In this document: positions 19,992-58,545 of the stretch, one piece after another
Numbering within the stretch: the first letter of the stretch is position 1
Layout: each line of letters begins with the position of its first letter
Assembly: GCA_944386175.1 (NCBI GenBank)
Contig: CALXAB010000001.1
Location: forward strand, 47,645-111,644
Length of the DNA stretch: 64,000 nt
Origin: an uncultured Clostridia bacterium
GTDB taxonomy: Bacteria; Bacillota; Clostridia; TANB77; CAG-508
Direction of reading: 5' to 3'
Translations under genes and position numbers: made by a program
The notes under the pieces: model-generated
Databases searched by the model: none
Seen by the model: only the letters and a program-made list of their open reading frames with translations
Told to the model about the DNA's origin: nothing

Positions 19992-20094
19992 ATTTAATTC
20001 GACCTCTTTTCCTTATAACCAATTTATATCACAAAAAGCTAAATTTTCATAGTATTTTACCAATATTTCCAAACATATTTATCCTTAAATTTTA

Positions 20095-40379: not shown

Positions 40380-40511
40380 TTATATTTTTTCTCCAATATT
40401 TATTATATTTTTATATTACTTTTCATATTCTATCATAATTTTATTTCTTTCTCAATAAAATTATAAAGTTTCAAAATATATTTATCCTTACATTTGCTTA
40501 ATTATGAAAAA

Positions 40512-40586
40512 ATCCGCAATAGAAATAATGTCAAGAGCGAGTGATAATGAGTTTATTTACTCTTGATATTATTTTTATTGCAGATT
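40512..40586. promoter_or_regulatory. Long palindromic operator (24-bp arms, 22-bp spacer) with inward-facing TTGACA boxes and divergent promoters
   Basis: CTCCAATAGAAATAATGTCAAGAG ... CTCTTGACATTATT. On the + strand, TTGATA-N17-TAAATT. A near-identical copy at 57947-58026 has TTGACA-N17-TAAAAT. Confidence 0.6.
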
Positions 40587-40821
40587 AAATTTACCCTGCA
40601 AATGTATGAGGCAAAAAATAAGTATCAGTACATATCTACCGACACTTAAATTTATAAAGATTCTCTATTACTTATTTCATAAATTCTTTCTAGCAATTGA
40701 AATAACTGATAATTTTACATATCTACAATTAAACACAACCTATATATGTCATGCTTATCATAGACACAATCTCAAATTCCCTAGTATTTCAAACACTTCT
40801 ATCAATTTTCTAAAATTTAAT

Positions 40822-41004
40822 TTATGTGTTTCCACTTACCACATCTGCAACTACTTTAACTTTCACATCTGAATTTTGATGTTTTTCTCTTCCATATCTT
40901 CCTTTTTTCTCGAAAGTTATAATCTCTGAAAACATATCAAATTCAAGTATTACCTGTCCTGTTTTAGTTGTAGCACTGCCACACATTCCACATGTGTTGG
41001 TCAT
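40822..41004 (-). CDS. Questionable small ORF (60 aa, MTNTCGMCGSATTK...) inside the conserved transporter leader
   Basis: A paralogous sequence at about 58370-58560 is conserved in translation, but that copy has no start codon. It could be a leader or regulatory RNA rather than a protein. Confidence 0.2.
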   Translation of the reverse strand: MTNTCGMCGSATTKTGQVILEFDMFSEIITFEKKGRYGREKHQNSDVKVKVVADVVSGNT

Positions 41005-42679
41005 CTCTGGTTGCAGTAAGTTTTAAATGTTGTTTATCTCCTGTTGCAGTAAAATTGTCTTTACAATTTATTTCTGTTCCGTTTTTACAAATAAACCTTA
41101 TTGTATATGGATTTATTGTACCATTTTCTAATGTTTCCCCAATTATTACTTTCTCTATTATACATTCAAAAATATCTTTATCAAAATTTTTCATTATTTC
41201 CATATCTTTAAATAAACCTTTAAACTTGTTTAATCTATGTTTAATACTTTCATTTCTGTTTGTGTCTTTTAGTAGGTTTTGTATTTTCTGTTCTACTTTT
41301 AATAGTTCTATGTTTAGCTCATCATATTTTAAAGTATATTGTTCTTTATTTATTCTGCCTTCTAAGTTTAGTTCTAATAGATTATTAAGTTTCTTGTTTA
41401 TTTTCTCTTTGTCTTTTTCTAGCTTATTTACTACTGTTTCTGTAGTATTTTCTTTTAAGACATTTTCTATTTTTTCTAAAAAATCTTCTACTACTTTTTT
41501 ATTGTTGTTACAGAGTATTCTATATCCTTGTACAAAACAATCTTCTAGTATTTCTTCTGGTATTGCTTTACAGTATGGGCATTCTTCTTTTCCATGTTTT
41601 GCTCTTTTGATACATTGCCATACTGCTTTTTCATATTTTCTTTTTGAGTTCCAGTTTCTTCTTGTAAGTAAGCTACCACAAAATCCACAATATAATTTAC
41701 TACTAAAAGCATATTTCTTACTATAGTTATTATTTCTTCTTCCTGTTTCTCTTGTTCCTACTCGTTTTATTCTTATTTCTTGTACTCTATCAAATAACTC
41801 TTTACTAATAATTGGCTCATGATGTTCTTTTATATAATGCTTTTCTGCTTCTCCTAAATTGCTTAATCTTTTATGTGATATTGGATCTATTGTAAATGTT
41901 TTTCCCATTAGCACATCTCCAATATATTTTTCATTTTTTAGTATTCCTCTTATTGTTGATTCGTTCCAATTATCATTACCTTTTGGGGATTTAATGCCTT
42001 TTGCTTTTAGTTCTTTTGCTATTGTACTTGAACCTATTCCGTCTACATATCTTTCAAATATATATTTTATAACTTCTGCTTGTTCCTCATTTATAGTTAT
42101 CTGTTTTGTTATTAAATCATAGTTATAACCGTAACAACCATTATAGCCAATTAACTCTCCCCTGTCTTTCTTCATTTTTAGTCCAAGCAATACATGTGAA
42201 GATATGTTCTCACTTTCTTGTTGTGCCATAGCACTTAATACTGTTAGTAGCATTTCTCCTGTTCCTGATAGAGTATTTAGATTTTCTTCTTCAAATAAAA
42301 CTGCAATGTTCTTTTCTTTTAGCATTCTTACATATTTTAAAGTATCTAATGTGTTTCTAGCAAATCTTGATATGGATTTTGTTAAAATCATATCAAATTT
42401 TCCAGACATTCCATCTGTTATCATTTTCATAAAGTCTGTTCTTTTAAAATCTAATGTGCCACTTATAGATTCATCTGCATATATTCCTGCAAATTGCCAT
42501 TCAGATTTGCTATTGATTTTTTCATCATAATACTTTAATTGTGATTGGTAACTATTTAATTGTTCTTTATTTCCTGTACTAACTCTACAATATGCACATA
42601 CTCTTAATCTTTCTTTGATTGTTGTACCTGTTACTCTGTTAATTCTTCCGTTTGTTTTCTCTATGACTTGAATTTCCAT
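40964..42679 (-). CDS. Large serine recombinase (resolvase domain plus recombinase and zinc-ribbon domains), 571 aa
   Basis: Catalytic RVCAYCRVSTG...YQSQ motif near the N-terminus, a C4 zinc ribbon (CGFCGS...C..C) and a coiled-coil C-terminal region. It is 60-70% identical to the recombinase at 48681-50573. Confidence 0.85.
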   Translation of the reverse strand: MEIQVIEKTNGRINRVTGTTIKERLRVCAYCRVSTGNKEQLNSYQSQLKYYDEKINSKSEWQFAGIYADESISGTLDFKRTDFMKMITDGMSGKFDMILTKSISRFARNTLDTLKYVRMLKEKNIAVLFEEENLNTLSGTGEMLLTVLSAMAQQESENISSHVLLGLKMKKDRGELIGYNGCYGYNYDLITKQITINEEQAEVIKYIFERYVDGIGSSTIAKELKAKGIKSPKGNDNWNESTIRGILKNEKYIGDVLMGKTFTIDPISHKRLSNLGEAEKHYIKEHHEPIISKELFDRVQEIRIKRVGTRETGRRNNNYSKKYAFSSKLYCGFCGSLLTRRNWNSKRKYEKAVWQCIKRAKHGKEECPYCKAIPEEILEDCFVQGYRILCNNNKKVVEDFLEKIENVLKENTTETVVNKLEKDKEKINKKLNNLLELNLEGRINKEQYTLKYDELNIELLKVEQKIQNLLKDTNRNESIKHRLNKFKGLFKDMEIMKNFDKDIFECIIEKVIIGETLENGTINPYTIRFICKNGTEINCKDNFTATGDKQHLKLTATRDDQHMWNVWQCYN

Positions 42680-42699
42680 CTTTCCTCCGTTCCGCCTAG

Positions 42700-42770
42700 A
42701 GATAAAACTTAATAATTTTATTTTATAGAAAAGTGCATTTTAATGCATCTTTTCTATAAAACAAGGTTAA
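42700..42770. promoter_or_regulatory. Perfect 13-bp inverted repeat (TTTTATAGAAAAG / CTTTTCTATAAAA) plus two more hairpins in the leader between the small ORF and the recombinase start
   Basis: Seen directly in the sequence. It is absent from the paralogous module at 50574-50617. Confidence 0.35.
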
Positions 42771-42881
42771 TTTACCTATATTTGCCCGAGCTTTAGCTCG
42801 TGGCATTTGAGCCTAGAAATCTTTGATTTCGTTAAGGCTCAATTATCTTATATCATTTTTTAGATAAAAAGTAAATTGTTC

Positions 42882-43058
42882 TTACAAAAGTTTATAATCT
42901 TTTAAGATTTTTCTTTTTATTTCAATATATTCTGAATCTAGTATTAAGTTTTCTCTAAACAAATTATTTAAAAACAATAATTCCATGCTACAGTCTAGCA
43001 TATTATTATCTTTTAGTTGTTTAGAGTTATCTACTTCTATTTTATAATTATGTAGCAT
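42882..43058 (-). CDS. Small conserved protein of 58 aa upstream of a serine recombinase
   Basis: Start taken at MLHNYKIEVDN. It is colinear with the 61-aa paralogues (ML.E.K.DN.K...N.F.C...Y.E.K..IL.EY.L). Confidence 0.45.
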   Translation of the reverse strand: MLHNYKIEVDNSKQLKDNNMLDCSMELLFLNNLFRENLILDSEYIEIKRKILKDYKLL

Positions 43059-43199
43059 GAAATTGCTCCTTTTCTTTAAATTTGAAAAGAAAAAGAACAA
43101 AGAAACTAGAATCTTTCTAATCCCTTTGCTCTTTCTCTTTCATACTACCATTATATTATCGTGTTTTTATATAGTCAATTCCATTTTTATTCCCTCTTT

Positions 43200-43625
43200 T
43201 CTATTTTTGATATAATTCTAGTATCTAATTTTATAAGTACACTAAGTAAACTAAAAATTGTATAATTTTAAATTGCAGTTCACTTGGTGTACTAGAAAAA
43301 TATAACAAAAGTTCACTAAGTGTATTTGTAAATTTTGTTTTATTTTCACATTCACTTAGTGAACTAAATTCAAAAATATTATTCAATATCAAGTACACTT
43401 GGTGAACTTTTTCCCAAAATAAGTGAATTTTTTTAATTTTTTAATTCACCATTTTTAATTTTGAACGAAGAATAGCGGGTTTGAGCCAGTTCACCGAGTG
43501 AATTTTTACATCATATTTGCATAAAATTTTTGTTTTTTTATTAACTCTTGAAGGCTTGTCCTTCAATATGTATAGGCATTTTGTTAAGAATGCTATCCTG
43601 CCCTCATTTTCAATGAGGTATTTTG
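43200..43625. repeat. parS-like palindrome array (GTTCACTTGGTGTAC, GTTCACTAAGTGTAT, TTCACTTAGTGAAC, GTACACTTGGTGAAC, AGTTCACCGAGTGAAT)
   Basis: Same family as the 36380-36890 array. It ends with ...TTAACTCTTGAAGGCTTGTCCTTCAATATGTATAGGC. Confidence 0.75.
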
Positions 43626-43788
43626 CTCTTAAAATGTACTTATTCTACTTAATTAAATATACTTATCCTTAAATCCTCTTAATCGAAAAACAATGTGCTT
43701 TTAAAAATAAGTCAAGGTTGTGCGATAGCACATTTATTTAAACCTTGACTTGTTTTTATAAAGCACATTATACTTTTCTAAAAGGATT

Positions 43789-45240
43789 TTAACTATTTAT
43801 AAAAAATTGAATTATTGCAAATATTCCCATATCTGAAATTGTTTTTATTGCATCTACATTAGCAATAACTTTATAAGGGTGATGAATTACTAAATCTAAA
43901 TAGTTTTTCATTCCTTCATTATTAAAACATGTCTCCCATGCTCTTGAAATAGTATCGTCATCAATAAGATTTTGTTTATCTATTGATATTTTATTTATAA
44001 TCTTCTCTAATCTCAAGTCCAAATTATTATTTGCAGATTTCCATTTTTCCCATTTTCCTTTGTTTATTAAAAAATAGATGCTTGATTGTTCTAATAATGA
44101 GCGGATTAAAAAGCAATATGATATTGGGTAATTTTTATATAAATTTCCAAATGATAAATGCTGAATTTCATAGCATAGATTTTTAATCCCTTTAGCTCTA
44201 TCATTACTATATTTTAGTTTGCTACAATTAATATTTTTAAATAAAATACTATTGTCTTTTCTTGTTAATCTGATTTTATTAAATGCTATACTTTCATTTA
44301 TTTTATTTTTTACTATTTCACTTTCATTGGCATTATTATGTTTTTCTTCTCTACCATTAGAAAATATCTTCATTTGTTCATTTTTATTTTCTAAATTTTC
44401 ATTTATTTTATCTTTGCTGTCAAACCTTTCACTAACATTATTTTCTATATTGCCATACAAATATTTTTCTATATTAGCATTATTTTTTATTGTGTTACTT
44501 GTAATCCTACCACTTACAATATCTTGAACAATTCGTAATACTTTCTTGTCTAATTCATTTATTGAAGACAATGGCATTAAAACATTGTTATTAAAAGAAA
44601 TATTCAGATATTCTTTACCAACTTTTGAAGAAACAATCTTTTCAAACTTATTTACTGAAAAATTATTGTCAACTCCATCAAATGCTTTTTTACAAAATCC
44701 TTGTAATTGTGAAAATATATTTTTTACTCCCATTTTATCTTCAAATCTTTTTATTGAAGCTGTATCCCATTTTAAAGCTCCTGTATCAGTTGTATGTACA
44801 TTTCTTATATATCCAGCACAATCTTCAAATGAAGTGGCCACATAACAAGGAATTTGAAAATATTCTTCTCCTTGAATTCCTGCACTCATTGCATATATGC
44901 TTCTTATTTGTGTATATGAAAAGTATTTAAAAGATTCTACCAATTTAGGATTTTTTAAGATTTTCATTGCTGTTAATCTTCTATTACCATCCCATGCCAC
45001 AAATTTTTCTTTTTTCTCATCATAAGTGACTGTAACTATTGATTGTGGATACCAACCATTTGTGTAAATATCACTAATTAACTTATGCATTGCCTTCGCT
45101 TCTTTAGAATTTCTCACCAATTGTTGCATTATAAAAAGTTCATCCGCTATCATAATTTGTGTATGTCTTGGATTCTCTGGATTTACTAATATTTTTTCTA
45201 TGTCTATTAGTTGATGTTCTCTCATATATAATTCCCCCAT
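43789..45240 (-). CDS. ParB/Srx-superfamily (DUF262-like, DGNRR motif) protein with a long C-terminal extension
   Basis: LVNPENPR and VAWDGNRRLTAM are the ParB N-terminal-domain boxes. A possible His-Me/HNH-like DLVIHHP lies near the C-terminus. Confidence 0.55.
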   Translation of the reverse strand: MGELYMREHQLIDIEKILVNPENPRHTQIMIADELFIMQQLVRNSKEAKAMHKLISDIYTNGWYPQSIVTVTYDEKKEKFVAWDGNRRLTAMKILKNPKLVESFKYFSYTQIRSIYAMSAGIQGEEYFQIPCYVATSFEDCAGYIRNVHTTDTGALKWDTASIKRFEDKMGVKNIFSQLQGFCKKAFDGVDNNFSVNKFEKIVSSKVGKEYLNISFNNNVLMPLSSINELDKKVLRIVQDIVSGRITSNTIKNNANIEKYLYGNIENNVSERFDSKDKINENLENKNEQMKIFSNGREEKHNNANESEIVKNKINESIAFNKIRLTRKDNSILFKNINCSKLKYSNDRAKGIKNLCYEIQHLSFGNLYKNYPISYCFLIRSLLEQSSIYFLINKGKWEKWKSANNNLDLRLEKIINKISIDKQNLIDDDTISRAWETCFNNEGMKNYLDLVIHHPYKVIANVDAIKTISDMGIFAIIQFFINS

Positions 45241-45294
45241 TTTTTACCTTATAAAGTCTTTCGTAAATCCCTCATCATTCTTAAGTATATTATT

Positions 45295-46812
45295 CTATTT
45301 TTTTGCAATATATTTTTGATTTTTAGTATTTGGTTTATCTGGTATAGTCATTTGCAATTTTCCACTATCTAATAATGGTCTCATGTATTTTAAATAGAAA
45401 TTTCTTCTGTCTTTTAATCCTAAATATGCCATTATTTCTTTTGTTGTTTTTGGTTCTCTACAAAATTCTAATATTTTATCTTGATGGGTATCTTGGTGGA
45501 TATCTTGGTGGGTTGTTGGTCGGTCTTTTATCTCATTTTCAAATCTATCATGTATAAATATTGTTGTAATAAAATAATCTCTTGTTTCATTTGTTTCAAA
45601 CTCTGGTTCTTTTGAGCCATTATTTTTCAATGCTCTTTTTATTTTTGGAATACCTGTATTTCTACCTTCTGTTAATTTTAATTCTTTTAAAAACTCTCCA
45701 ATTCTACGATTTCTATATTTTCTTGCTATCATATTTTTATCTTCAATTGATTTTTCGCTTATTGAACGGTCTGGTCCTGGATAACTTACAATATGAATTC
45801 TATCTTCCATTATTCTTACTTCTACTGGTTCCCTTACATCATATCCTCTATGATAAACTGCATTTACTAATGCTTCTTCTATTGCTTGATATGGATAATT
45901 AAAAAATCTTACAGCCTCCGCTTGTCCATCTATCTTTAAAATTTTTTCCATAATAACAGTATTTTTAATATATGTTAAAGCACTTTTTATCATAGTATCA
46001 ATAGGTCCTTTAAATATTTGCTCTGTCATATCATCACCTTCTGGACCGTTTCTTAAATCTACTACTTCTATTTGTGAATATGGAAAGAATTTTTGTGGCT
46101 CATCATTAAAAAACATTAACCCTACATTTAAAGGTTTCATATATTCTGGTGTTCCATCTACTATTCTCATACTTTTACATAAATCTATAAAACTCATTGT
46201 TTCGGATTCTTTTAATAGTTCACTCTTTATCTCATATAAGTAATTTTGAATTAGTGGTAGTTTTAAATCTTGAATTTGTGCCTCATGATTCATTCTATCA
46301 TCGAATGGTATTACTCTTGCCATATCATATAATTCTTTTTGCTCTACTTCTGTAGCTTTTACTGTACTGGACATTTTTCTAATATAATATGAATATCCTT
46401 TTGAAAAATCTTTATCTAGTGTTGTTGGACATTTGTATGGTCTATTCTGACCACCAAAACACCATACTACTAGTATATTTTTACCTTTATATTGAGCAAC
46501 ATCTACAATTGGTGTATAGGCTGGCTGTATCATTTTACATTTTGTTAGCAATTCTTTTTGAATTTTATCTATTTCAGATAATTGTAGCCCTTCAAAATCT
46601 TTCTTAGGTCTACCATTTGCTTCTTCAACACCTATTAAAATATATCCTCCACCCCAGTTATCTATATCATTTGCAAAAGCACAAATTGTATGTAATATTG
46701 GTTCTGGATTCCAGTTTCTCTTTAATTCTAATCTTGCATTTTCTACAATGTTTTCATTTAGTATATTTTCTATACTTGTAGGTAATCTCATCTTCTCACC
46801 TTTCTTTTTCAA
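45295..46812 (-). CDS. COG2865-type Schlafen-like (AlbA_2) ATP-binding / HTH protein
   Basis: An N-terminal AlbA_2/Schlafen-like DNA-binding domain (LELKRNWNPEPILHTICAFANDIDNWGGGYILIGVEE), a central HATPase_c_4-like region and a C-terminal HTH. Confidence 0.55.
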   Translation of the reverse strand: MKKKGEKMRLPTSIENILNENIVENARLELKRNWNPEPILHTICAFANDIDNWGGGYILIGVEEANGRPKKDFEGLQLSEIDKIQKELLTKCKMIQPAYTPIVDVAQYKGKNILVVWCFGGQNRPYKCPTTLDKDFSKGYSYYIRKMSSTVKATEVEQKELYDMARVIPFDDRMNHEAQIQDLKLPLIQNYLYEIKSELLKESETMSFIDLCKSMRIVDGTPEYMKPLNVGLMFFNDEPQKFFPYSQIEVVDLRNGPEGDDMTEQIFKGPIDTMIKSALTYIKNTVIMEKILKIDGQAEAVRFFNYPYQAIEEALVNAVYHRGYDVREPVEVRIMEDRIHIVSYPGPDRSISEKSIEDKNMIARKYRNRRIGEFLKELKLTEGRNTGIPKIKRALKNNGSKEPEFETNETRDYFITTIFIHDRFENEIKDRPTTHQDIHQDTHQDKILEFCREPKTTKEIMAYLGLKDRRNFYLKYMRPLLDSGKLQMTIPDKPNTKNQKYIAKK

Positions 46813-46842
46813 ATGTCCGTTTTTTCGGACTTATAAAATTTT

Positions 46843-47259
46843 TTATTTCATATAATCTCTAATTTTAAATAATAACTCATCATCTAATATCTCTGTTGAG
46901 GCAAAATTATTTAAAGTATTATTATCTTCCCAATCTATATCAAATAAATTTATCACTTTATCATATCTTGGGAAAGCATGATAATGAACAAATGGATCAT
47001 GCATCATCATAATCATATAATTAAACTTTATTGCTCCAAACCTGTCTCTACATAGTTCTTCATACCATTTTATTACTTTTGGAAATTCAGCACCTTCATC
47101 TTGTAACATTCCACTTACATTTTGTGTTTCTCTTTTCAATAAAATAACTACATCTCCTAATGTTGTTTGTTTTTGCCTAACACAAACAATCCAATACTTA
47201 AACTCTTTAATACAAAGTTCCTCTGGTCTAAATTTTTTCATAAATTCTAAATTGTCCAT
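46843..47259 (-). CDS. HIT-like small hydrolase (tentative)
   Basis: 138 aa with DPFVHYHAFP, which resembles the histidine-triad HxHxH motif. Confidence 0.3.
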   Translation of the reverse strand: MDNLEFMKKFRPEELCIKEFKYWIVCVRQKQTTLGDVVILLKRETQNVSGMLQDEGAEFPKVIKWYEELCRDRFGAIKFNYMIMMMHDPFVHYHAFPRYDKVINLFDIDWEDNNTLNNFASTEILDDELLFKIRDYMK

Positions 47260-47282
47260 TGATAAGACCTCCTCTTACATTT

Positions 47283-47920
47283 TTATTTTTTAAACATATC
47301 ATTTAAATTATGTGATATTAATTTTAAATTATCTATATTTTCCCCTTCAATAACATAAGGCGTACAATGTTGTATTTGCAATTCAAATACTCTTTCTCTT
47401 GGTTCAATCTTAAACATATTTAAAAATAAGCACCTTATTGCATGATAATGTGAGAATATTCCTATTGTTATATCATCATTAAAATCTAACGAATCAAGAA
47501 ATCTTTTACATCTTATACTAACATCAGTATAGTTTTCTCCTTTTGGTGCTTTTTGTACGAAATCTGTTCTAAATTTATTAAATTTTTCATCTGTAATATA
47601 TTCATTATATTCATTAGAAGCTAATAAATCCTTCTTTTCCTTCAAATATTCCTAAACATCTTTCTCTTAAATCTTTACTTAAATTTAGTTCATATCCTGG
47701 TTTAGCTAATTTTGCTGTTTGTATTGCTCTCATTAAATCTGAAGAATAAACTTTTTTAATACTTTTAATAATATCATTTTTTGCTAAAATACTTGCTTGA
47801 TTCTTTCCTTATTCTGTTAAACTCGTCAATTCATTATCTAAAGTTCCTGTGTATAAAGCTGTTCCTTCATCATTTATCACGTTTGCCATTGTTTGTCCAT
47901 GTCTAATTATAACTATTCTC
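47283..47920 (-). pseudogene. Histidine phosphatase (phosphoglycerate-mutase-like) gene broken by frameshifts
   Basis: The N-terminus MRIVIIRHGQTMANV (RHG catalytic motif) at 47920 runs into a stop after about 37 codons. Downstream pieces in other frames end with the 120-aa ORF. Confidence 0.55.
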
Positions 47921-47921
47921 A

Positions 47922-48506: not shown

Positions 48507-48680
48507 TCTATCTAAATTCTCCCTATCTCTATTCTTTTATATTTTGACCATATTTTACCATAAAACAATAAAAAAATAAAGCATATAACAAATTAAATTA
48601 TTACATACTTTACCTTTCAAGTTTTATCTCCAAACATTTTTATTTTTCGTTGACAAATCGTTGACATTATCAACAAGAAA

Positions 48681-50573
48681 TTATACTACTCCGCACACCA
48701 TGTCAACTTCTATCGTTACTTTAATTTTATGATTTTCTGTTCTTTTAACCTTATTTTTGCCTTTTCTATCAAAACTAATAAAATCTTCAAAAGCAGTAAA
48801 TTGGGCTATTGTATCGAATCTTTCAGACATAGCACCGAGCAACACTCCACATGGCTCACACCCAGTCTGTAGATAGTTTTGGCTTACCTCGTATGATGAC
48901 TGTTGCAAACTACCTTGATTTTTATCTTTTTGACATTTGATTTCGTTTCCAGATTTTAGGATAAATGTTATTACTCTTGGATTTACATCTCCATTTTGTT
49001 CTTTTTCTCCTATTATAACTTTTTCTATCATTAATTCAAAAACATCTTTATCAAATGTTGGCATTATTTCATCATCTTTAAATAGACTTTTAAACTTGTT
49101 TAATCCTTGATTTAAACTAATTGAATCTTCTAACTCTAGTTGTAAATGTTCTTGCTCTTTTTCTATTTTGTTTATCTTGTTTTGTAATTTTGCCTTTTTA
49201 TCTTTTAATGTTTCAAGTGTTATTGTTCCATTCAAGTTTAAATCAATTAACTTGTCTATCTTTTCTTTTAAAGTTTGTTTTTCTTCTTCTAATTTTTTAA
49301 TAGAACTTTCATTACTTTCTTCTTGTATGATTTCTTCCATTTGTTTTAAGAATGTTTTGATTAGTTTTTTGTTATTATTACATAAAAGTTTATAACTTTC
49401 TGTAAATGCTTCTTCTATAATGTTTTCTTTCATTGCTTTACAATATGGGCAATTTTCTTTTCCATGTTTTACAAATTCCATACAATGCCATACCGTAATA
49501 CTATTTTTTGTTCCAGAGTGCCAGTTTCTTCTTGTTAATAAACTTCCACAAAAACCACAATATATTCTACTACTAAAAGGATATTTTCTGCTAAAGTTTC
49601 CTTTTCTTCTTCCAGAGCCTCGTACTCCTCCTCGCTTTTGTAATATTTCTTGTGCTTGATTAAACATTCTTTCTGAAATAATTGGTTCATGATGTTCTTG
49701 TATGTAATACTGATTTTCTTCTCCCATATTGACTACTCTTCTATGTGAGATTGGATCTGTTGTATATGTTTTTCCTTGTAAGACATCTCCTTTGTATTTT
49801 TCGTTTTTCAAAATACCTCTTATAGTTGAGTCATGCCATTGTTTCTTTCCTGTTGGTGTTTTATATTTCATAGCAGTTAGTTCTTTTGCAATTGTTGTGC
49901 AACCTACTCCTTGACAGTATCTTTCAAAGATATATCTTACTATTTCTGCTTCTTGATAATTTACTGATATTTTCTTTGTTTCTTTATCATATACATATCC
50001 TAAACATCCATTATATCCAATTAATTCTCCTCTTTTTTGTTTCATCTGTAATCCTAGTTTTACATGAGAAGATATATTTTCGCTCTCCTGCTGTGCCATT
50101 GCACTCATTACTGTTAGCATTACTTCGCCAGATAATTCTAAAGTATTGATGTTTTCTTCTTCAAAATAAATAGTGATTCCTTTTTCCTTTAATAATCTTA
50201 CATACTTTAAAGTATCTACTGTATTTCTTCCAAATCTTGATATTGATTTTGTAATTATCATGTCAAATTTGTTTTCTGTTGCATCTTGCATCATTCTCAT
50301 AAAGTTATCTCTTTTATAGTCAAGTGTTCCTGTTATCCCTTCATCTGCATAAATCCCTACATAAGTCCAATCACTTCTTGATTTTATTTTTTCTTCATAA
50401 TATTTTAGCTGAGAATTATAACTATTTATTTGTTCTTCTTTTTCTGTACTAACTCTTGCATAGGCACATACTCTTAAATTGCCTTTTATAACTTCTCCTG
50501 TTGTTCTATTAATTCTTCCTTTTTTCTTCTCTATTACTTGTACTTTCAAAATTAACCTCTCTTTCTCAAGCAT
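48681..50573 (-). CDS. Large serine recombinase, 630 aa
   Basis: Catalytic RVCAYARVSTEKEEQ...YNSQ motif, a zinc-ribbon CGFCGS...CPYC and a coiled-coil. It is paralogous to 40964-42679. Confidence 0.85.
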   Translation of the reverse strand: MLEKERLILKVQVIEKKKGRINRTTGEVIKGNLRVCAYARVSTEKEEQINSYNSQLKYYEEKIKSRSDWTYVGIYADEGITGTLDYKRDNFMRMMQDATENKFDMIITKSISRFGRNTVDTLKYVRLLKEKGITIYFEEENINTLELSGEVMLTVMSAMAQQESENISSHVKLGLQMKQKRGELIGYNGCLGYVYDKETKKISVNYQEAEIVRYIFERYCQGVGCTTIAKELTAMKYKTPTGKKQWHDSTIRGILKNEKYKGDVLQGKTYTTDPISHRRVVNMGEENQYYIQEHHEPIISERMFNQAQEILQKRGGVRGSGRRKGNFSRKYPFSSRIYCGFCGSLLTRRNWHSGTKNSITVWHCMEFVKHGKENCPYCKAMKENIIEEAFTESYKLLCNNNKKLIKTFLKQMEEIIQEESNESSIKKLEEEKQTLKEKIDKLIDLNLNGTITLETLKDKKAKLQNKINKIEKEQEHLQLELEDSISLNQGLNKFKSLFKDDEIMPTFDKDVFELMIEKVIIGEKEQNGDVNPRVITFILKSGNEIKCQKDKNQGSLQQSSYEVSQNYLQTGCEPCGVLLGAMSERFDTIAQFTAFEDFISFDRKGKNKVKRTENHKIKVTIEVDMVCGVV

Positions 50574-50616
50574 AGAGAATCTTTATGTTTGTATTATATA
50601 TTAAAATCTTATATTT

Positions 50617-50802
50617 TTAAATACCTATATGAGTTAAATCATATTCTTTTAAAATATTTTGTTTTAGTTCTAAATATCTTTCCTCTTTAATTAGTCCTGC
50701 ATTATATGTTTTATTTAGAATTGCTATTTTAATGCTACAATTAAAAATATTTTCATTTAGTTTTACATTTTTCGTATTATCAAATTTTACTTCGTACAAC
50801 AT
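50617..50802 (-). CDS. Small conserved protein of 61 aa upstream of a serine recombinase
   Basis: About 95% identical to 36169-36354. Start at MLYEVKFDN. The upstream extension in the ORF track is not supported. Confidence 0.5.
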   Translation of the reverse strand: MLYEVKFDNTKNVKLNENIFNCSIKIAILNKTYNAGLIKEERYLELKQNILKEYDLTHIGI

Positions 50803-50939
50803 AAAAATTCTCCCTTGCTTAAATAAAATTTCAAAAAAGAGCAATAGAAAAAGCCAGTCGGCTAGCTTCGACTGACTTCTTTGTCTGACATTTTTTGATA
50901 ATACGATTATATTATGATGTTCTATAAAGTTCAATTCCC

Positions 50940-51350
50940 GTTTTTTTCCCTTTTTTCTATTTTAATTGATAAAGTGTTGATTTTTTAGTTAGTACACTAA
51001 GTGAACTTGTGTAAAAATTTTTTTAATTATTTTTTACTTTATTATTTTTGAGTTCACTCGGTGTACTTAGTTTTTTATTATATCAATTTTTAGTACACTT
51101 AGTGAACTAATTATAAATTATTTCATAAAATTTAGTACACTTGGTGAACTTTTTCTTAAAAATTACTTATCTTTCGTTCATTTAGTGAACTTTCACACTC
51201 TAAAAGAGATTTTTTAGTCATTCATTCGGTGAATTTTTGCATCAAATTTGCTTAAAATTTTTGTTCTTTTATTAACTCTTGAAAGCTTGACCTTCAATGT
51301 GTATATGCGTTGCGTGATGCACGCTATCCTGCCTTTAGTGTTCACTTTAT
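50940..51350. repeat. parS-like palindrome array (the full copy, contiguous with the intact recombinase module)
   Basis: About 95% identical to 36380-36890 over roughly 0.9 kb when the small ORF and the recombinase 5' end are included. Confidence 0.8.
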
Positions 51351-51355
51351 ATCCT

Positions 51356-53209: not shown

Positions 53210-53265
53210 ATTTTGCTCCCATTTTCATATATTCATTTAATTATTCTATGTATGTAGTTATTAGA

Positions 53266-54111
53266 TTATTTTTTTAATTCATTCTTTATTTCTTCTAATA
53301 CTCCCATCGTATCTTCATAATTAATATCTTCTGCATAACTAAATTTAGATTGATAATTCTTCCAATGCTCTTTCAGAACATCACTTTCTTTTATAACTTC
53401 CATTATCTCATTTATATTATTTAATTTATCCATTGAACCTCTATATTCAAATTTCTTCAATATAGCTTGTCCTAATAATTCTTTATTAAAATTTTGTTGT
53501 TGAGTAGTCCATAATATATAAATATCATAAAAATCTCTCGCTCTTGTAGTATCTATATTTCTTGATATAATTGTTTCAAATTTATCAGCTATTACTGTTT
53601 CCATATTATATGCTAATATTTCTATTGAACGATTTTCAAACATTAAATCGAACTTATAATTTACTTCTTTTGGAACAATTACATCTCCTGTTGTTATATC
53701 TAATTTCATTGGTACAACTAACTTATCAAATTTAGCATCTAAAGCTACTCTGTATCCTCCATATTCATCTTCTTGTCTTATTTCTTTTATACTTCTAAAT
53801 TCAAATGCTACTCCATCATCTAAATCTATATTAAAAATTTCATTTAAGATATTTTCAAGATTATCCTTTTCTAAATCAAATCCTTTTATCGTTGCATCCA
53901 TATCAAGAGTATTTCTCATGTCTATTCCAACTATTGCTGTTATTAACATTCCTCCTTTTAATACAAATTTATATTTGTATTTTGATACCGAAATTCTTTC
54001 CAATAGTCTTTCTAGCATATAGTTTTGTAAAATAATGTTTTCATTCACATCTACTTTATCTGACATATTCTTTATCCATGCTTTTAATTGTGCTCTATTT
54101 TTTGCTATCAC
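53266..54111 (-). CDS. AbiEii/DUF1814 nucleotidyltransferase toxin (type IV TA), intact
   Basis: 281 aa. The GG...D.D region (KGGMLITAIVGIDMRNTLDMD). Overlaps the upstream AbiEi gene by 4 nt. Confidence 0.8.
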   Translation of the reverse strand: MIAKNRAQLKAWIKNMSDKVDVNENIILQNYMLERLLERISVSKYKYKFVLKGGMLITAIVGIDMRNTLDMDATIKGFDLEKDNLENILNEIFNIDLDDGVAFEFRSIKEIRQEDEYGGYRVALDAKFDKLVVPMKLDITTGDVIVPKEVNYKFDLMFENRSIEILAYNMETVIADKFETIISRNIDTTRARDFYDIYILWTTQQQNFNKELLGQAILKKFEYRGSMDKLNNINEIMEVIKESDVLKEHWKNYQSKFSYAEDINYEDTMGVLEEIKNELKK

Positions 54112-54701
54112 AATAACACCTCCAAGTATTTTCTTACTTCATCTTCAATATTAAATAATTTTGCATATTTGTGTAGTTTAATAGAGTTTCTATCTTTTCT
54201 TTCAGCATATCTTTTCATCGCATCTGTAAATAAGGCAATTTCTATTTTTTTCTTATTTCTGATAATGTCACATATTGTTCTCTCTAAATCATAAACTTTA
54301 ACTTTGTTTCCATATGGTGTATTCATTTCTATTATTCCTAATTCATATAATTCATCTTTTAAATAGAAAAATTGATAGTTTCTATCTTTTAGTAATTTAG
54401 TATTATAGTAACTAGGTATAGTCAATTGATATTTTATGGGAGTTCTATCACATAAATCATGAAAATACAAAGCTGTCTCATGAGAGAATATCCCTTTTTT
54501 ACAAATTGCTTGTGTGATAAAATAATTATCTTCAAATGTATCTGCTCCAATATATACTCCTCTTGCTACTCTATCTATCAATCCCTTTTCTATCATCCTT
54601 GTTAAAATCTTATTATTTATCCCAATATCTTCTACTTGATATGTTTCAATCACTCCATTATTATTTTTTAATAATTTTTCTACTTTTTCTATATCATCCA
54701 T
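54108..54701 (-). CDS. AbiEi family antitoxin
   Basis: 197 aa with an N-terminal wHTH (RVARGVYI). Overlaps AbiEii. Confidence 0.75.
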   Translation of the reverse strand: MDDIEKVEKLLKNNNGVIETYQVEDIGINNKILTRMIEKGLIDRVARGVYIGADTFEDNYFITQAICKKGIFSHETALYFHDLCDRTPIKYQLTIPSYYNTKLLKDRNYQFFYLKDELYELGIIEMNTPYGNKVKVYDLERTICDIIRNKKKIEIALFTDAMKRYAERKDRNSIKLHKYAKLFNIEDEVRKYLEVLL

Positions 54702-54810
54702 AAATTTTCTCCTTTGCCGTTTTCATTCGTAAATATTATATCATTTACGAATAAAAACGGCAACAATATTTAAAAAATTAATAGCACAAAATTAAAATTT
54801 GTGCTAAAAT

Positions 54811-55296
54811 CTAACTTTCAAAGTAAAATGCTAACCTTGAATTATTTCTAATATATTTCTCCTCAAAATTATTATTTGTAAAATTTTTTATAGTCTTTCT
54901 CCAAAATTTTTGAGCTCTTTCATTTTTTAATAATGTTCTAACTTCCCATTTTCCTTTATATAACTCAAACATTTTATTTGCCATATATGTACCTGCTCCC
55001 ATTTTTCTATACTTGTTAAGAATAAAAAATTCAGCTATTTCGTTCATATTTTCTTCATTAAATCTATGTAAAACAAAACCTGCTAATTCATTATCACATT
55101 TTAATATATATGGATGTCTATTTTCTTCTTGCCAGTATCTTTCAACATATTTATTCATTACATATAATCCAGAATCTAGCATTGTAAATGTTGCTGTCTC
55201 ATCTTCAAAAAAGCTAAGCTCATATGTATATAATTGCATTAAATTATATATTATATTTTTGTCTTTTTCATCAACTTTTATTAAATCAAATCTCAT
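54811..55296 (-). CDS. GNAT family N-acetyltransferase
   Basis: 161 aa. The NKYRKMGAGTYM motif A. Confidence 0.6.
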   Translation of the reverse strand: MRFDLIKVDEKDKNIIYNLMQLYTYELSFFEDETATFTMLDSGLYVMNKYVERYWQEENRHPYILKCDNELAGFVLHRFNEENMNEIAEFFILNKYRKMGAGTYMANKMFELYKGKWEVRTLLKNERAQKFWRKTIKNFTNNNFEEKYIRNNSRLAFYFES

Positions 55297-55325
55297 TTTC
55301 TTCTCCTTATTTAAATAATAAAAAA

Positions 55326-55949
55326 CTATTTTTCAATTTCATTATCATATATACTTTTATATTCTTCAAACTTAGCCTTTGCTCTTGGTAGTCCTGCATC
55401 CACTGCCATCTTTAAATAATATTCTGATAATCTTAAATTTTTCTCTGTTCCAACTCCATTATAATAAAAATTTGCTCCTAAATCATAAATTGCTGGAAGA
55501 TGTCCTTGTATTGCACAGTCATGTATTAATTCAAATGCTTTCTTTTCATCTCTTTCAATATTTCCAAATCCAAAATAGTAATAAGCTCCTAAACAAAATT
55601 TTGAAAATGCTTGTCTTCTCGGTGTTTCTTGTTCTTCATTTATAAGACTTAATAGTGATTCATAAGCCTCAATATGTATCTGTTTTGCTTTTTCTTTATC
55701 TTGTTCCACTCCATCTCCAAAATGATAGCAAGCACCAACTCCATATGCACAACGAGGATCTCCTAAGTCTTTTCCTTTTTCATACCAGTACATTGCTTTT
55801 TCAAAACTTTGCTCTGCTCCATTTTCTTGACTATCATAACTTCTTCCTAGAATATAGCACGCAAGTCTATCTCCATTTTTAGCTTTCATTTCTAAATCTT
55901 CTATGTTAAATATCATTGGCTTTATTATATTATTCACTTTTAGCTTCAC
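55326..55949 (-). CDS. Sel1-like / TPR repeat protein
   Basis: Repeated AxxGxxYxxGxGVxxDxxKA units. Confidence 0.6.
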   Translation of the reverse strand: MKLKVNNIIKPMIFNIEDLEMKAKNGDRLACYILGRSYDSQENGAEQSFEKAMYWYEKGKDLGDPRCAYGVGACYHFGDGVEQDKEKAKQIHIEAYESLLSLINEEQETPRRQAFSKFCLGAYYYFGFGNIERDEKKAFELIHDCAIQGHLPAIYDLGANFYYNGVGTEKNLRLSEYYLKMAVDAGLPRAKAKFEEYKSIYDNEIEK

Positions 55950-56481
55950 CTAATTTCTTTAATAAAATATATCTTTTTATATTTTCATCTTTTTTATACC
56001 AAGTTTGTTCCTCATATCCTAAGTCTTTTAAATTTCTTAAACTATAAATATTTCCAAAAGTTACTTCTGCAATAATGTTACTTATTCCTTTTTCTTTAGC
56101 CCTTCCTTCAAGATATTTTACTAATGTTTTCTGTAATCCATATCCTCTATACTCTGGTAATACAATAACTCCATCTATATCAGCACAATTACCTTTGATA
56201 TTTGTAATCATTTGCTTTAATTCTTTCATTCTGCTTGAAACTGATAAAAAAATCCATGCAATCATTTTATTATCTATAAAAGCACCATATATCTCTCCAT
56301 CATTTATAGGGTTGTTTAATATCCTTAAATATGTTTCTTTTTTAAAAGGTAAAAAATAACCTTTTTCCTCCTCTTTAAAATTATCTATTACAATATTTTG
56401 AATATTATATATGTCATCAACGTCATTCGAATTGCATTTTCTAATTTTTAGTTTTTCCTTAGAAAATTGATTAATTTCCAT
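55930..56481 (-). CDS. GNAT family N-acetyltransferase
   Basis: 183 aa. The RGYGLQKTLVKY motif A. Confidence 0.65.
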   Translation of the reverse strand: MEINQFSKEKLKIRKCNSNDVDDIYNIQNIVIDNFKEEEKGYFLPFKKETYLRILNNPINDGEIYGAFIDNKMIAWIFLSVSSRMKELKQMITNIKGNCADIDGVIVLPEYRGYGLQKTLVKYLEGRAKEKGISNIIAEVTFGNIYSLRNLKDLGYEEQTWYKKDENIKRYILLKKLGEAKSE

Positions 56482-56498
56482 ATTTTAATTCACCTTCG

Positions 56499-57494
56499 TT
56501 ATTTTGTTTTTTCAAAAATATCACTCCAAAAGTCATTGTTGCTAAATTCTAATCCTTTTTCACTTTCATAATACCAAAATTTATCTTCTTCCGATATTTC
56601 TCCTTTACTCATCAAATGACTTAACTGTAAAATTCCCATTGCATTTGCAATATCAAATAATATTGGAAATACTTCTTTTTCATAGCTTGTCAATTTATTA
56701 TATTTCTCATACTCATTTAATATCATCCTTATCTTGTTTTTGGTATCTTCAGTATCATTTGGGTTTAAACATAAGTTACAACTACTTACAGCTAAATCAA
56801 TAATTCTAGGAAGATAATTTGACACTGCAAAATCTATTATCCATAATTTTCCATTATTATCTTTCATAACATTTGTACTTATTATATCTCCATGTGTAAA
56901 AGCATGTGGTAATTTTTGCATATCAATATTTTTAAATTTTACTATCAATTCATTTAACCTTGTGTAATCATTTTCACTTAAATGTTGTTTTTTATCCTCA
57001 AACTCTTGTGCAAAATTTATAATTGCCCATTTGTCATAAATAAACTCTGAATCTAATTTTTGGTTATGTATAATCGCCATTTGTCTTATAATTTCTTTTA
57101 TTTCTTCTTCACTTGGAATAATTCCTAAATCAAAAAAGCTATTACCATTTATGTACTGAAATACACATAATCTATATTTGATATTTTCTATTTCAATTAC
57201 ACATTCACTTTCATTATTTACTTTATACAGTTTTGGTGTATTTATTTCTGTTTTTTCTGCTAATTCAATTCTCTCAATATAGTTTTTACAATCTGTATCT
57301 GTTCTTTCTTTATGAAATATTTTTACACAATATTTTCCTGTTGTTGTCTTTAATATATAATTGAAATCTTCATACCCAACTGTAATAATCGTATCTGATA
57401 CATATTCTCCTAAATTATACATATTACATATATGTTTTGAAACTGTACTTAAATCAGTGTTTAGATTAATCCTATCTTTAAATTCTTCTTCCAC
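56499..57494 (-). CDS. Phosphotransferase-family (APH/choline-kinase-like) kinase
   Basis: HGDIISTNVM...IIDF matches the APH catalytic loop HGD...N and the DFG-like motif. Confidence 0.65.
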   Translation of the reverse strand: MEEEFKDRINLNTDLSTVSKHICNMYNLGEYVSDTIITVGYEDFNYILKTTTGKYCVKIFHKERTDTDCKNYIERIELAEKTEINTPKLYKVNNESECVIEIENIKYRLCVFQYINGNSFFDLGIIPSEEEIKEIIRQMAIIHNQKLDSEFIYDKWAIINFAQEFEDKKQHLSENDYTRLNELIVKFKNIDMQKLPHAFTHGDIISTNVMKDNNGKLWIIDFAVSNYLPRIIDLAVSSCNLCLNPNDTEDTKNKIRMILNEYEKYNKLTSYEKEVFPILFDIANAMGILQLSHLMSKGEISEEDKFWYYESEKGLEFSNNDFWSDIFEKTK

Positions 57495-57500
57495 TAATAT

Positions 57501-57833
57501 TTATACCTCCATGTACCATTGTTTAAGAAATATACATTTATTGCTCTTATTTAATTTTATTTGATATATCATGTCATATAATATTGTATCTTTCAAAATA
57601 AAATTAACTATACAACATTCATCATTTTCACATAGTATATTGAACTCAATATCATTTGTGTTTTGCCCTTTTATTTCTTCCCATATTTCTCTAATTTTTT
57701 TCATGTTATTTATTTTTTCTATAGGCGACTCATAATACTCCACTTTTTCATCAAATAAGTTAATTATCTTGTCTATATCTTTCTGTTTCCAATTATTTAG
57801 TAATTCATCACACCATTTATAATAATCTCTCAT
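57501..57833 (-). CDS. Hypothetical protein of 110 aa
   Basis: ORF only. No recognisable domain. Confidence 0.35.
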
Positions 57834-57939
57834 ATTCTATTCTCCTAATCTTTACTGTATATAATATATCATAAATTCCTTAATTTTACAATGAAATCGC
57901 CAATATTTTAATATTACATATATCTTTACATTTGCTTAA

Positions 57940-58545
57940 CTACCCCAAAATCTCCAATAGAAATAATGTCAAGAGCGAGTGATAACAAGTTCATTTACTC
58001 TTGACATTATTTGTATTGGAGATTAAAATTGCTTTGCAAATGTATAGCACAAATTTTTCGCTTTTTTCGTGATATAAAATTCCATCGGACGAAAATTTCA
58101 ATTTTTTCGTCCGATAAATTTTTATAAGCCGAATTTCATTAAATTTTCGTCCTATAAAAAATAAGCATCAGCAGATATCTACCAACACTTAAATTTATAA
58201 AGATTCTCTATAACTTATTTCATAAATTCTTTCTAACTATTAAAATAACTAATAAATTCACATATCTACTAACCACCTCAACCTATATATGTTTTTCTTG
58301 CCATAGATACAATCTCAAATTTCCTAGTATTTCAAACACTTTCATCAATTTTCTAAAATTTAATTTATGTGTTTCCATTTACCATATCTGCAACTACTTT
58401 AACTTTCACATCTGAATTTTGATGTTTTTCTCTTCCAAATCTACCTTTTTTATTAAAAGTTATAATCTCTGAAAACATATCAAAATCAAGTATTACCTGC
58501 CTTTCTTTAGTTGTAGCACTGCTACACACTCCACATGTGTGGTCG
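57940..58545. promoter_or_regulatory. Second copy of the conserved transporter leader (palindromic operator at 57947-58026), with an extra ~110-bp insert carrying three TTTTCGTCC repeats
   Basis: About 90% identical to 40508-41002. Identity ends at CCACATGTGT-GGTC (58531-58544). Confidence 0.6.

Follow-up and report, generated by a model that had tools for sequence, protein, structure and literature searches.

The Locus and Its Two Repeats

The stretch of DNA analyzed here, hereafter the window, comprises 64,000 nucleotides from an uncultured Clostridia bacterium of the CAG-508 lineage (GenBank assembly GCA_944386175.1, contig CALXAB010000001.1, positions 47,645 to 111,644). Its G+C content is about 25%, and the minus strand holds every annotated open reading frame (ORF) from 33.8 to 64 kb. 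The subject of this work is a repeat, referred to as the unit or the cassette, that occurs twice in this region in the minus-strand orientation. Copy 1 (40427..40994) follows recA, one of the large serine recombinase (LSR) genes of the window, and precedes a pair of ATP-binding cassette (ABC) exporter genes. Copy 2 (57863..58543) follows an ATPase gene and a permease gene and precedes a cargo of SnoaL-like, aminoglycoside phosphotransferase (APH)-family, GNAT and AbiE genes.

The two copies are direct repeats on the same strand. A repeat search aligned 40613-40912 with 58156-58455 at 89% identity and 40469-40607 with 57907-58045 at 83%, and when the stretch between recombination core and outward promoter was aligned globally (40427-40994 against 57863-58537), 491 of 561 positions were identical, or 87.5%. 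The initial annotation had described two leaders about 90% identical. Both repeats exist, with an identity slightly below that estimate once the 105-bp insert of copy 2 is set apart, and their limits are wider than proposed, since homology extends to the outward promoters at 40427 and 57863. Copy 2 is longer by about 105 nt, located at 58052-58156. Relative to a consensus of related loci, copy 1 matches positions 1-383 and 457-593 with 86-88% identity, and copy 2 covers positions 1-601. The 31-mer CAATAGAAATAATGTCAAGAGCGAGTGATAA, taken from the palindrome within the repeat, occurs exactly twice in the window against 0 occurrences expected by chance.

Each copy had been placed upstream of a transporter operon, and for copy 2 this placement fails. 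The ATPase gene (60297-60995, minus strand) and the gene for a 529-aa membrane protein, the permease (58598-60187, minus strand), run from 60995 down to 58598 and stop 54 nt before copy 2; as all genes lie on the minus strand, both are upstream of it. What copy 2 precedes is a string of SnoaL-like, APH, GNAT, Sel1 and AbiE genes that runs from 57833 down to 51356. The repeat is thus located 5′ of an operon in both cases, of which it is very probably the promoter source, but a leader shared by transporters it is not. An exact-sequence look-up of the 529-aa permease returned only one 2.7-kb contig, broken at the repeat.

A Probable Recombination Core Within the rumA 3′ End

Across related loci, labeled L002, L017, L030 and so on, the 5′ edge of the unit always consists of the last 15 codons of rumA, from a CCACA-CA-TGTGG core onward. 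The first 45 nt read H-V-E-C-V-A-V-L-Q-L-K-Q-D-(M/R)-stop, and in L017 these codons end a 457-aa TRAM/S-adenosylmethionine methyltransferase of the RumA type, terminating in FTSHVECVAVLQLKQDR. The corresponding codons, which would heal a disrupted rumA, read HVECVAVLQLKQDR and a stop in copy 1 (40950..40994, minus strand) and HVECVAVLQLKKGR and a stop in copy 2 (58493-58537, minus strand). The rumA frame continues 11-14 codons beyond the core in all loci. Variability concentrates on the third codon position only in this stretch and only in the rumA frame (0.54/0.09/1.82 for the three positions). Within the window, only these last 15 codons of rumA are present at each junction, without the body of the gene.

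To the left of the core lies either an intact rumA, which runs into the core in 27 loci, or the 3′ end of an LSR gene, found immediately upstream in 16, together with a few further classes. These left flanks are discrete, mutually unrelated classes, all of which diverge exactly between ACA and CATGTGG. The rumA class ends in GATATGTTTCCnTTTACAAGC, and the LSR classes end in ACCAGAGAGAAACAACA (recA type), CTATGTGTGAGC (recB type) and AGCGACCACA (L030 type). The core itself is an imperfect inverted repeat around a non-palindromic dinucleotide, the typical organization of large serine recombinase sites, and crossover would take place at the CA preceding TGTGG.

Motif scanning and the left-flank classes located the core in the window, always on the minus strand, as CCAACA-CA-TGTGG at the junction of recA and copy 1 (40988..41000) and as CCACA-CA-TGTGG at copy 2 (58531..58542). 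The 10 nt to the left of the copy 2 core (AGCGACCACA) correspond to the end of an L030-type LSR gene, the body of which is missing there. A third core, GAGC-CA-TGTGGAG (48847..48858), lies within the 3′ end of the second LSR gene, recB, and is followed by an alternative left-end type devoid of the hairpin described below. The initial annotation had itself named the end of a mobile element as the alternative to a regulatory leader, and a repeat that starts at a serine recombinase crossover core corresponds to that alternative.

In four metagenome contigs (L082, L093, L104 and L111), a stretch of about 1.2-1.5 kb is inserted between the end of rumA and the core with its cassette.

Serine Recombinase Genes That Read Across the Core

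Both complete recombinases of the window, recA (571 aa, 40964..42679, minus strand) and recB (630 aa, 48681..50573, minus strand), match the Resolvase, Recombinase and Zn_ribbon_recom domains (PF00239, PF07508 and PF13408) above curated cut-offs, as well as the integrase family phrog_95 with E-values of 1e-136 to 1e-141. The recA, recB and L030-type LSR ORFs all cross the core, and three frames are used to do so. This arrangement indicates that the attachment (att) site lies inside the recombinase gene, in frames differing from that of rumA, so that rumA and the recombinase gene would exchange their 3′ ends.

The continuation beyond the core differs between recombinase types. The recB- and L030-type LSRs read a C-terminal tail of 49-56 codons provided by the cassette in an alternative frame, present as a tail ORF in copy 1 (40822..41004, minus strand) and in copy 2 (58365-58535). 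In 62 of 66 loci this tail stays open for 49 codons or more, and in L030 it forms an in-frame fusion with the LSR; its codon periodicity is weak (position 3 > position 1 > position 2). The recB product is also read through its core in the tail frame, and residues 575-628 of its tail are 33% identical to the copy 2 tail ORF. The recA gene stops 9 codons past the core in the third frame, ending in HMWNVWQCYN. A frameshift caused by one extra A before the tail ORF was considered for recA and rejected: six homologues (L005, L008, L015, L038, L039 and L050), 82-94% identical over residues 1-571 and abutting a unit, share the same HMWN.WQCYN end, which is therefore normal for this lineage. A gene on the plus strand of the unit was likewise discarded, as the only conserved ORF there is the stop-free antisense of the tail ORF.

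Distribution and Divergence of the Cassette

The inner arms of the palindrome (13 + 13 nt, gap of 16-28) were searched as a pattern in a one-genome-per-species collection and in viral contigs. The pattern matched 77 genome loci, all in metagenome-assembled genomes of uncultured gut Clostridia, and 0 viral contigs. A 20-mer anchor located outside the arms recovered 37 further metagenome contigs, mostly from human gut. With copy 2 as a blastn query, homology extended from 58543/58537 to near 57900 in nearly all of the 77 loci at 75-88% identity, which delimits a discrete unit. Comparison by blastn with PLSDB plasmids and with the GenBank phages of INPHARED gave no match to the unit; on these grounds, and on the empty search of viral contigs, a plasmid or phage origin was rejected. 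An identity of the palindrome as a miniature inverted-repeat transposable element or insertion sequence end is likewise at odds with its confinement to the cassette, in constant context and orientation relative to the core and to the outward promoter.

A different possibility is that the cassette represents vertically inherited host DNA located after rumA, such as a regulatory region of the host, the two window copies having arisen by segmental duplication without involvement of mobile elements. Many loci do carry rumA and the cassette with no recombinase within 5-9 kb. Among 24 species in which rumA adjoins the unit, however, the last 300 nt of rumA show a mean identity of 72% and the first 380 nt of the unit 83.5%, so the cassette is more conserved than the adjoining coding sequence, and the two divergences are uncorrelated (r = 0.08). 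By this measure, the divergence of the cassette is uncoupled from that of its host. Several genomes contain 2-3 copies, an LSR gene reads straight into the unit at 16 loci and at copy 1, and the left flank switches class exactly at one dinucleotide. Simple vertical descent is therefore very improbable.

The Repeats as Probable Junction Cassettes of Integrative Islands

In the order of the minus strand, the window holds an array that starts with the ABC genes (the ATPase and permease) and 10 nt of an LSR end. Module 1 opens with copy 2 and a cargo from 57833 to 51356 (a SnoaL-like protein, an APH-family kinase, two GNATs, a Sel1-repeat protein, AbiEi/AbiEii and a 617-aa protein); arrayed copies of a 17-bp motif, a 61-aa ORF and recB complete it, ahead of the core at 48853. 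Module 2 begins with the alternative left end and carries an HD protein, a His_Phos fragment, a Schlafen/AlbA_2-HATPase protein and a PD-Lambda-5_A-like protein, followed by a 58-aa ORF and recA, up to the core at 40994. Module 3 contains copy 1, the ABC exporter pair (36892-40379), a further 17-bp motif array, a 61-aa ORF and a truncated third LSR. Of the latter, the first 48 codons remain (35982..36125, minus strand), which share 96% identity with recB and run into the 3′ half of purD. The resulting hybrid ORF (35451-36125, minus strand) joins LSR codons 1-48 to the GARS_A/GARS_C half of purD, and hisS and other his genes come after the fusion. The LSR codons are duplicated, along with 740 bp upstream of them, from 50425-51316, and an exact-sequence look-up of the hybrid ORF found no record. 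The hybrid ORF is the scar of a deletion that took away the 5′ half of purD together with the array end.

Complete modules consisting of cassette, cargo and LSR occur elsewhere (L002, L009, L016, L018, L057, L073 and L104), and L083 shows the same recB-cargo-recA-cassette order as the window with 92% protein identity.

Taken together, these observations support, with a probability that we place at roughly 80%, the interpretation that the repeats are the junction cassette of LSR islands that target the 3′ end of rumA; this estimate excludes the function of the hairpin. The anatomy of the unit, its distribution, the junction classes, the reading-frame relations and the patterns of conservation and covariation were observed directly, and the following scheme would account for them. 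The cassette, of about 640 nt, would belong to integrative islands of about 5-10 kb in uncultured gut Clostridia, moved by their LSR into the 3′ end of rumA, the gene of a 23S rRNA uracil methyltransferase. Since rumA and the LSR gene would both have the crossover core in their final codons, integration would swap the 3′ ends of the two genes. The cassette, as the left end of the island, would restore the last 15 codons of rumA, and the LSR at the right end would read into whichever cassette adjoins it. Repeated insertion would then generate head-to-tail modules of cassette, cargo, small ORF and LSR, and the presence of three modules plus remnants would explain why the cassette is found twice in the window.

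It is important to note that several features weigh against this interpretation. The right end of the array is a deletion scar and offers no clean attR, and the rumA body lies outside the window, so that the left end of the array is not seen. To the left of copy 2 there is no LSR, only 10 nt resembling an LSR end. Almost all related sequences come from metagenome assemblies, and present-day mobility of the islands can only be presumed from sequence. Some rumA-adjacent cassettes (L006, L052 and L080) have no LSR within 5-9 kb downstream, which means that the cassette may also be a resident landing pad. Finally, a 640-nt flank far exceeds what an LSR requires of an att site, so att function alone leaves the conservation of the unit unexplained. 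We infer nevertheless that the cassette travels with the islands, and that it could be both the left end of an island and the remnant left after island loss, for example by recombination between flanking units.

Predicted Terminators and Promoters of the Cassette

The anatomy of the cassette is numbered on the gene strand in consensus positions. The rumA end (1-45) is followed by the tail ORF (to ~152), an intrinsic terminator (~348-385), variable hairpins, the long hairpin (457-571) and the outward promoter (~609-636). The terminator, with a 12-bp stem and T6 in copy 1 (40619..40648, minus strand; 58162-58191 in copy 2), was the only strong conserved helix that RNAalifold identified in consensus positions 150-392. 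A large structured RNA was for this reason rejected for the 240 nt that separate the hairpin from the tail ORF, as the analysis of 61 sequences yielded only the terminator helix, with little covariation on either strand. In agreement with this result, Rfam gave 0 hits at the gathering score over the whole window and, at a permissive threshold, only generic long-hairpin matches (plant miRNA precursors) far below the cut-offs.

The insert that distinguishes copy 2 (58052..58156) is made of hairpin repeats of the form GGACGAAAA.../...TTTTCGTCC, terminator-like on both strands. As noted in the initial annotation, TTTTCGTCC occurs three times there, twice on the plus strand and once on the minus strand. 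Such hairpins are absent from copy 1 and present as 0-3 modules at other loci.

The outward promoter, P_out, has the consensus ATGAAA-16-TATAAA with an upstream TG. In copy 1 it reads TTGAGA-17-TAGAAT with an upstream TG (40427..40455, minus strand) and faces the ABC exporter pair at 36892-40379. In copy 2 it reads TTGTAA-17-TATATT, again with an upstream TG (57863..57891, minus strand), in front of 57501-57833 and the genes that follow. This copy 2 variant and the same first cargo gene also appear in L016, L034, L051, L052, L054 and L061. Homology between loci stops a few bases after the P_out -10 box and gives way to unrelated cargo, each with its own ribosome-binding site.

A second promoter, P_anti, faces backwards on the plus strand. 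The sigma-A-type promoter of the initial annotation is present as described in copy 2 (TTGACA-17-TAAAAT, 58001..58029, 11 of 12 consensus matches); its counterpart in copy 1 is weaker (TTGATA-17-TAAATT, 40563-40591, 9 of 12). The assertion that this promoter fires away from the downstream operon holds as a conserved feature, in both spacing and -10 pattern, over 66 copies. The -35 box is TTGATA in 64 of the 66, the spacer is always 17 nt, and the -10 box is TAAAAT or TAGAAT (T1 in 66/66, A2 in 65/66 and T6 in 63/66), followed by five variable bases.

From the arrangement of terminator and P_out, the unit would end incoming transcription and supply a promoter to whatever follows. In functional terms, the terminator and the additional hairpins would stop transcription arriving from rumA or from an upstream LSR, and the outward extended -10 promoter would drive the cargo, which behind copy 1 means the ABC exporters and behind copy 2 the SnoaL-like/APH/GNAT/AbiE genes. 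The promoter embedded in the long hairpin faces back to the junction. Activity of these promoters and terminators is predicted from their sequences. Only in this limited sense does the unit act as a leader; it is part of a mobile module and not of a regulon.

The Long Hairpin and Its Possible Roles

The most distinctive component of the cassette is a long hairpin of 115 nt in the consensus, located at 40489..40606 in copy 1 (main stem P2 at 40511-40586) and at 57927..58044 in copy 2 (P2 at 57949-58024). It is composed of an outer helix, P1, of 8-9 bp (ACATTTGC/GCAAATGT; in copy 1, TACATTTGC/GCAAATGTA), internal loops, a 27-bp main stem and a 22-nt apical loop. The main stem is the palindrome of the initial annotation, and the 24-nt arms and 22-nt spacer given there are accurate, although the palindrome is not perfect: copy 2 has one G/G mismatch, and the copy 1 arms (GCAATAGAAATAATGTCAAGAG / CTCTTGATATTATTTTTATTGC) include two G.T positions. 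Similarly, TTGACA boxes occur in both arms of copy 2 only, as the right arm of copy 1 reads TTGATA. The -35 box of P_anti forms part of the P2 stem, and its -10 box is contained in the internal loop that separates P2 from P1 and that the outer helix closes.

As single-stranded DNA, both strands of the hairpin are more stable than shuffled sequences by a wide margin: copy 1 folds with -20.8 to -21.0 kcal/mol (z-scores of -6.6 to -7.2 against shuffled sequences) and copy 2 with -27.9 to -29.6 kcal/mol (z-scores of -8.2 to -9.6). Across 66 copies, 94.2% of the paired cells are complementary on the gene strand and 97.9% on the plus strand, compared with 38-49% in registers slid by 1-3 nt. Seven pairs show double compensatory changes, the outer and apical helices included. 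Main-stem substitutions turn TA into AT or CG, CG into AT or GC, and AT into GC; in the outer helix, ACAT/ATGT changes to ATCT/AGAT; and the apical 2-bp helix exists in two complementary states, split 37/25 and 33/27. The alignments thus indicate that pairing of the hairpin is maintained and agree with the earlier view of the palindrome as a selected feature.

The remaining mismatches are mostly A.C on the gene strand, equivalent to G.T on the plus strand (119 cells versus 28), a bias that also holds in a metagenome sample not selected on the arms. As RNA, the plus strand folds with -47.4 kcal/mol and the gene strand with -38.4. These data are suggestive of the plus strand as the strand that folds, and they are treated only as such: palindromes can gain compensatory changes by template switching without selection, and few positions are independent.

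Our working view is that the hairpin is a single-strand-forming control element within the divergent promoter region. Two further candidates were discarded, namely an accessory LSR site, which has no similarity to the core, and a nick site in the loop like that of an origin of transfer (oriT), for which the resemblance to a MOBV nick sequence is not conserved between the two loop variants.

The initial annotation interpreted the palindrome as a duplex operator, bound by a dimeric regulator that would co-regulate the downstream operons and a divergent RNA as one regulon. The two symmetric arms with TTGAYA motifs are in line with this proposal, as are the overlap of one arm with the conserved P_anti over its -35 box and spacer and the location of the element ~45-165 bp upstream of the outward promoter. 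A compact TTGATA-A-TGTCAA occupies the equivalent place after recB, and at four loci (L037, L046, L068 and L065) the hairpin lies in a divergent control region by a recombinase or excisionase-like gene. On the other hand, the genes behind the cassette are unrelated across the 66 copies, with homology ending right after the -10 box, copy 2 does not precede a transporter, and the window contains only two copies of the palindrome, both within the cassette. No conserved regulator gene travels with the repeat, which leaves room for one acting in trans. Furthermore, the arms change by paired substitutions that keep complementarity, and covariation extends to an outer helix 30 nt away and to the 2-bp apical helix, none of which is predicted by half-site recognition; a folded single strand fits this pattern better than two half-sites. 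A duplex operator is consequently unlikely.

The four loci just mentioned deserve description in their own right. In L037 (5500-7585), L046, L068 and L065, the hairpin and the outward promoter are present without the rumA and tail part, in a divergent control region where the hairpin stands back-to-back with a distant LSR operon (21-27% identity) or with an excisionase-like helix-turn-helix gene. The inner promoter aims at that LSR operon or excisionase-like gene.

A second explanation regards the hairpin as a further terminator or insulator of the gene strand, or as the body of a small antisense RNA, which would shield P_out and the cargo from read-through. It is a possible explanation, though a doubtful one. 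A fully conserved ATTTTG follows the stem on the gene strand, and several terminator-like hairpins separate the upstream gene from the outward promoter, this one being the final member of the row. A weak conserved plus-strand promoter, TTGCCA-18-TATCCT, could start an RNA at the hairpin base, with the GGAC hairpins as terminators. Nevertheless, an AT-rich 27-bp stem with a 22-nt loop and only four T residues was not called in a terminator scan, while a canonical terminator lies upstream, and the conserved A.C mismatches weaken the gene-strand RNA relative to the plus strand by the folding energies given above. The outer helix and the placement of the promoter are left unexplained, the TTGCCA box is missing in copy 1, and no Rfam family matches.

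A third explanation is that the hairpin functions as a promoter or priming site in single-stranded DNA (ssDNA), comparable to the Frpo/ssi elements of conjugative plasmids or the single-strand origin (sso) of rolling-circle plasmids. The plus strand, entering as ssDNA, would fold, and RNA polymerase would use the stem's -35 box together with the internal loop's -10 box; transcription would leave the hairpin base into the cargo and LSR in the sense direction, or would prime the complementary strand. All module genes use the plus strand as template, and the geometry therefore fits. Consistent with this explanation are the separation of exactly 17 nt between the stem -35 and the internal-loop -10, the closure of that loop by a co-varying P1, and the mismatch bias described above. 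Frpo hairpins have indeed been described as mimics of duplex -35 and -10 boxes (PMC11541004). Conversely, no relaxase, oriT, Rep or conjugation genes were found in any module, and there is no similarity to plasmids or phages. The G.T bias derives from about four independent positions, both strands of the hairpin fold about equally well as DNA, and template switching could produce the compensatory changes in a palindrome without selection. This role is also improbable.

Conserved Features Around the Modules and Further Remnants

A 17-bp near-palindrome, AGTTCACYWAGTGTACT, forms clusters of 5-6 copies upstream of each operon of small ORF and LSR (36541-36731, 43236-43504 and 50991-51191), with two more copies at 20108-20165. 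A scan of the window gave 35 strand-matches where 0.4 would be expected, and the motif clusters resemble an operator or iteron array that would control recombinase expression.

Directly upstream of every LSR gene lies a conserved ORF of 58-61 aa, with products beginning MLYEVKFDNTKNVKLNENIF and MLHNYKIEVDNSKQLKDNNM (50617-50802, 36169-36354 and 42882-43058, all on the minus strand). These ORFs have no Pfam or PHROG match, and their product is a candidate recombination directionality factor or regulator.

The cargo is rich in defense-like genes. At 43789-46812, a PD-Lambda-5_A-like gene (E = 8e-43) adjoins one that encodes a Schlafen/AlbA_2 and HATPase_c_4 protein, and at 53266-54701 there is an AbiEi/AbiEii pair with E-values of 1e-70 to 1e-96.

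The alternative left-end type, CATGTGGAGTGTTGCTCGGTGCTATGTCTGAAAGATTCGATACAATAG, is found after recB-like LSRs (48681-48853 in the window; 7610-7680 in L002). In the rumA frame it would read HVECCSVLCLKDSIQ and a stop. It has no long hairpin, and its compact TTGATA-A-TGTCAA is located ~100 nt before an extended -10 promoter.

A third, partial cassette copy, restricted to the P_out region and without the hairpin, is present at 20021..20092 (minus strand) and is 85% identical to the consensus. A metallophosphoesterase gene (19155-19991) follows it, copies of the 17-bp motif directly adjoin it, and an AbiEii-like gene (21768-22589) lies nearby. The region around 20 kb is thus probably a further island remnant.

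Comparison with Known Systems

Elements moved by a single serine integrase into rumA have been described in streptococci, as integrative and conjugative elements (ICEs) as well as dICEs, and in Clostridioides difficile as CTn5 (Ambroset et al. 2016, PMC4701971). In the streptococcal elements, attR is internal to the integrase gene; on integration, rumA and that gene trade their 3′ ends reciprocally, and the frame changes (PMC4701971). The islands proposed here share with the rumA ICEs and dICEs an LSR of Resolvase/Recombinase/Zn-ribbon architecture, a probable insertion at the rumA 3′ end, attR in the integrase gene and the reciprocal exchange with its frame change. The ICEs and dICEs, in contrast, are large and conjugative and are bounded by direct repeats of 2-21 bp, whereas the islands here measure 5-10 kb, lack conjugation genes, are stacked in tandem and are flanked by a ~640-nt cassette with terminators, hairpin and promoters.

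The staphylococcal cassette chromosome elements (SCC and SCCmec) are islands inserted at the 3′ end of rlmH (orfX) by the CcrAB or CcrC serine recombinases. They resemble the present islands in that a serine recombinase inserts at the 3′ end of an rRNA methyltransferase gene, the gene is preserved, and composite tandem arrays arise that are bounded by repeats of the target end. They differ in that the ccr genes are internal, with att outside ccr, and in that the repeats span ~15-20 bp. We know of no conserved promoter and hairpin cassette in SCC elements.

The integron platform, with attI and the Pc promoter, is similar in placing a conserved promoter by a recombination site, where it expresses variable, unrelated cargo located right behind. 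Integrons, however, depend on one resident tyrosine recombinase, attC hairpins and promoterless cassettes, while each module here comes with a serine recombinase and a promoter cassette of its own.

As for the hairpin, the likeness to Frpo/ssi and sso elements (Masai & Arai 1997; PMC11541004) consists of a long imperfect hairpin in which the -35 and -10 boxes appear duplex-like on one strand. The promoter spacing, TTGATA-17-TAAAAT/TAGAAT, falls within the range of those elements (16-18 nt). No oriT or relaxase context is present here, and the likeness is one of geometry, read from sequence.

Conclusions and Perspectives

The islands proposed in this work would belong to a known kind, that of rumA-targeting LSR elements with att in the integrase gene, to which the long conserved cassette and its hairpin add new details. 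The novelty resides in their very small size, limited to recombinase and cargo, their tandem stacking, and a junction of 640 nt in place of a repeat of a few bases. The hairpin, with its conserved embedded promoter, has a function that is directly testable, and the cassette provides a sequence handle for the detection of such arrays in metagenomes. Its junctions would represent natural att sites for a family of serine recombinases.

For the biology of these abundant uncultured Clostridia of the human gut, the finding illustrates how islands consisting of recombinase and cargo may accumulate at one chromosomal site. The cargo is of defense-like and resistance-like nature, including AbiE, a PD-Lambda-5-like gene, a kinase of the aminoglycoside phosphotransferase family and ABC exporters. 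Each island would bring a ready insulation-and-promoter cassette able to express any gene placed behind it. Should the hairpin be a Gram-positive counterpart of Frpo, an unlikely option in which it would serve as a promoter or priming site only when the template strand of the island is single-stranded, cargo and recombinase could be transcribed, or the second strand primed, upon entry of DNA by mobilization or transformation. Recombinase-only islands without transfer genes of their own would then carry a single-strand establishment signal.

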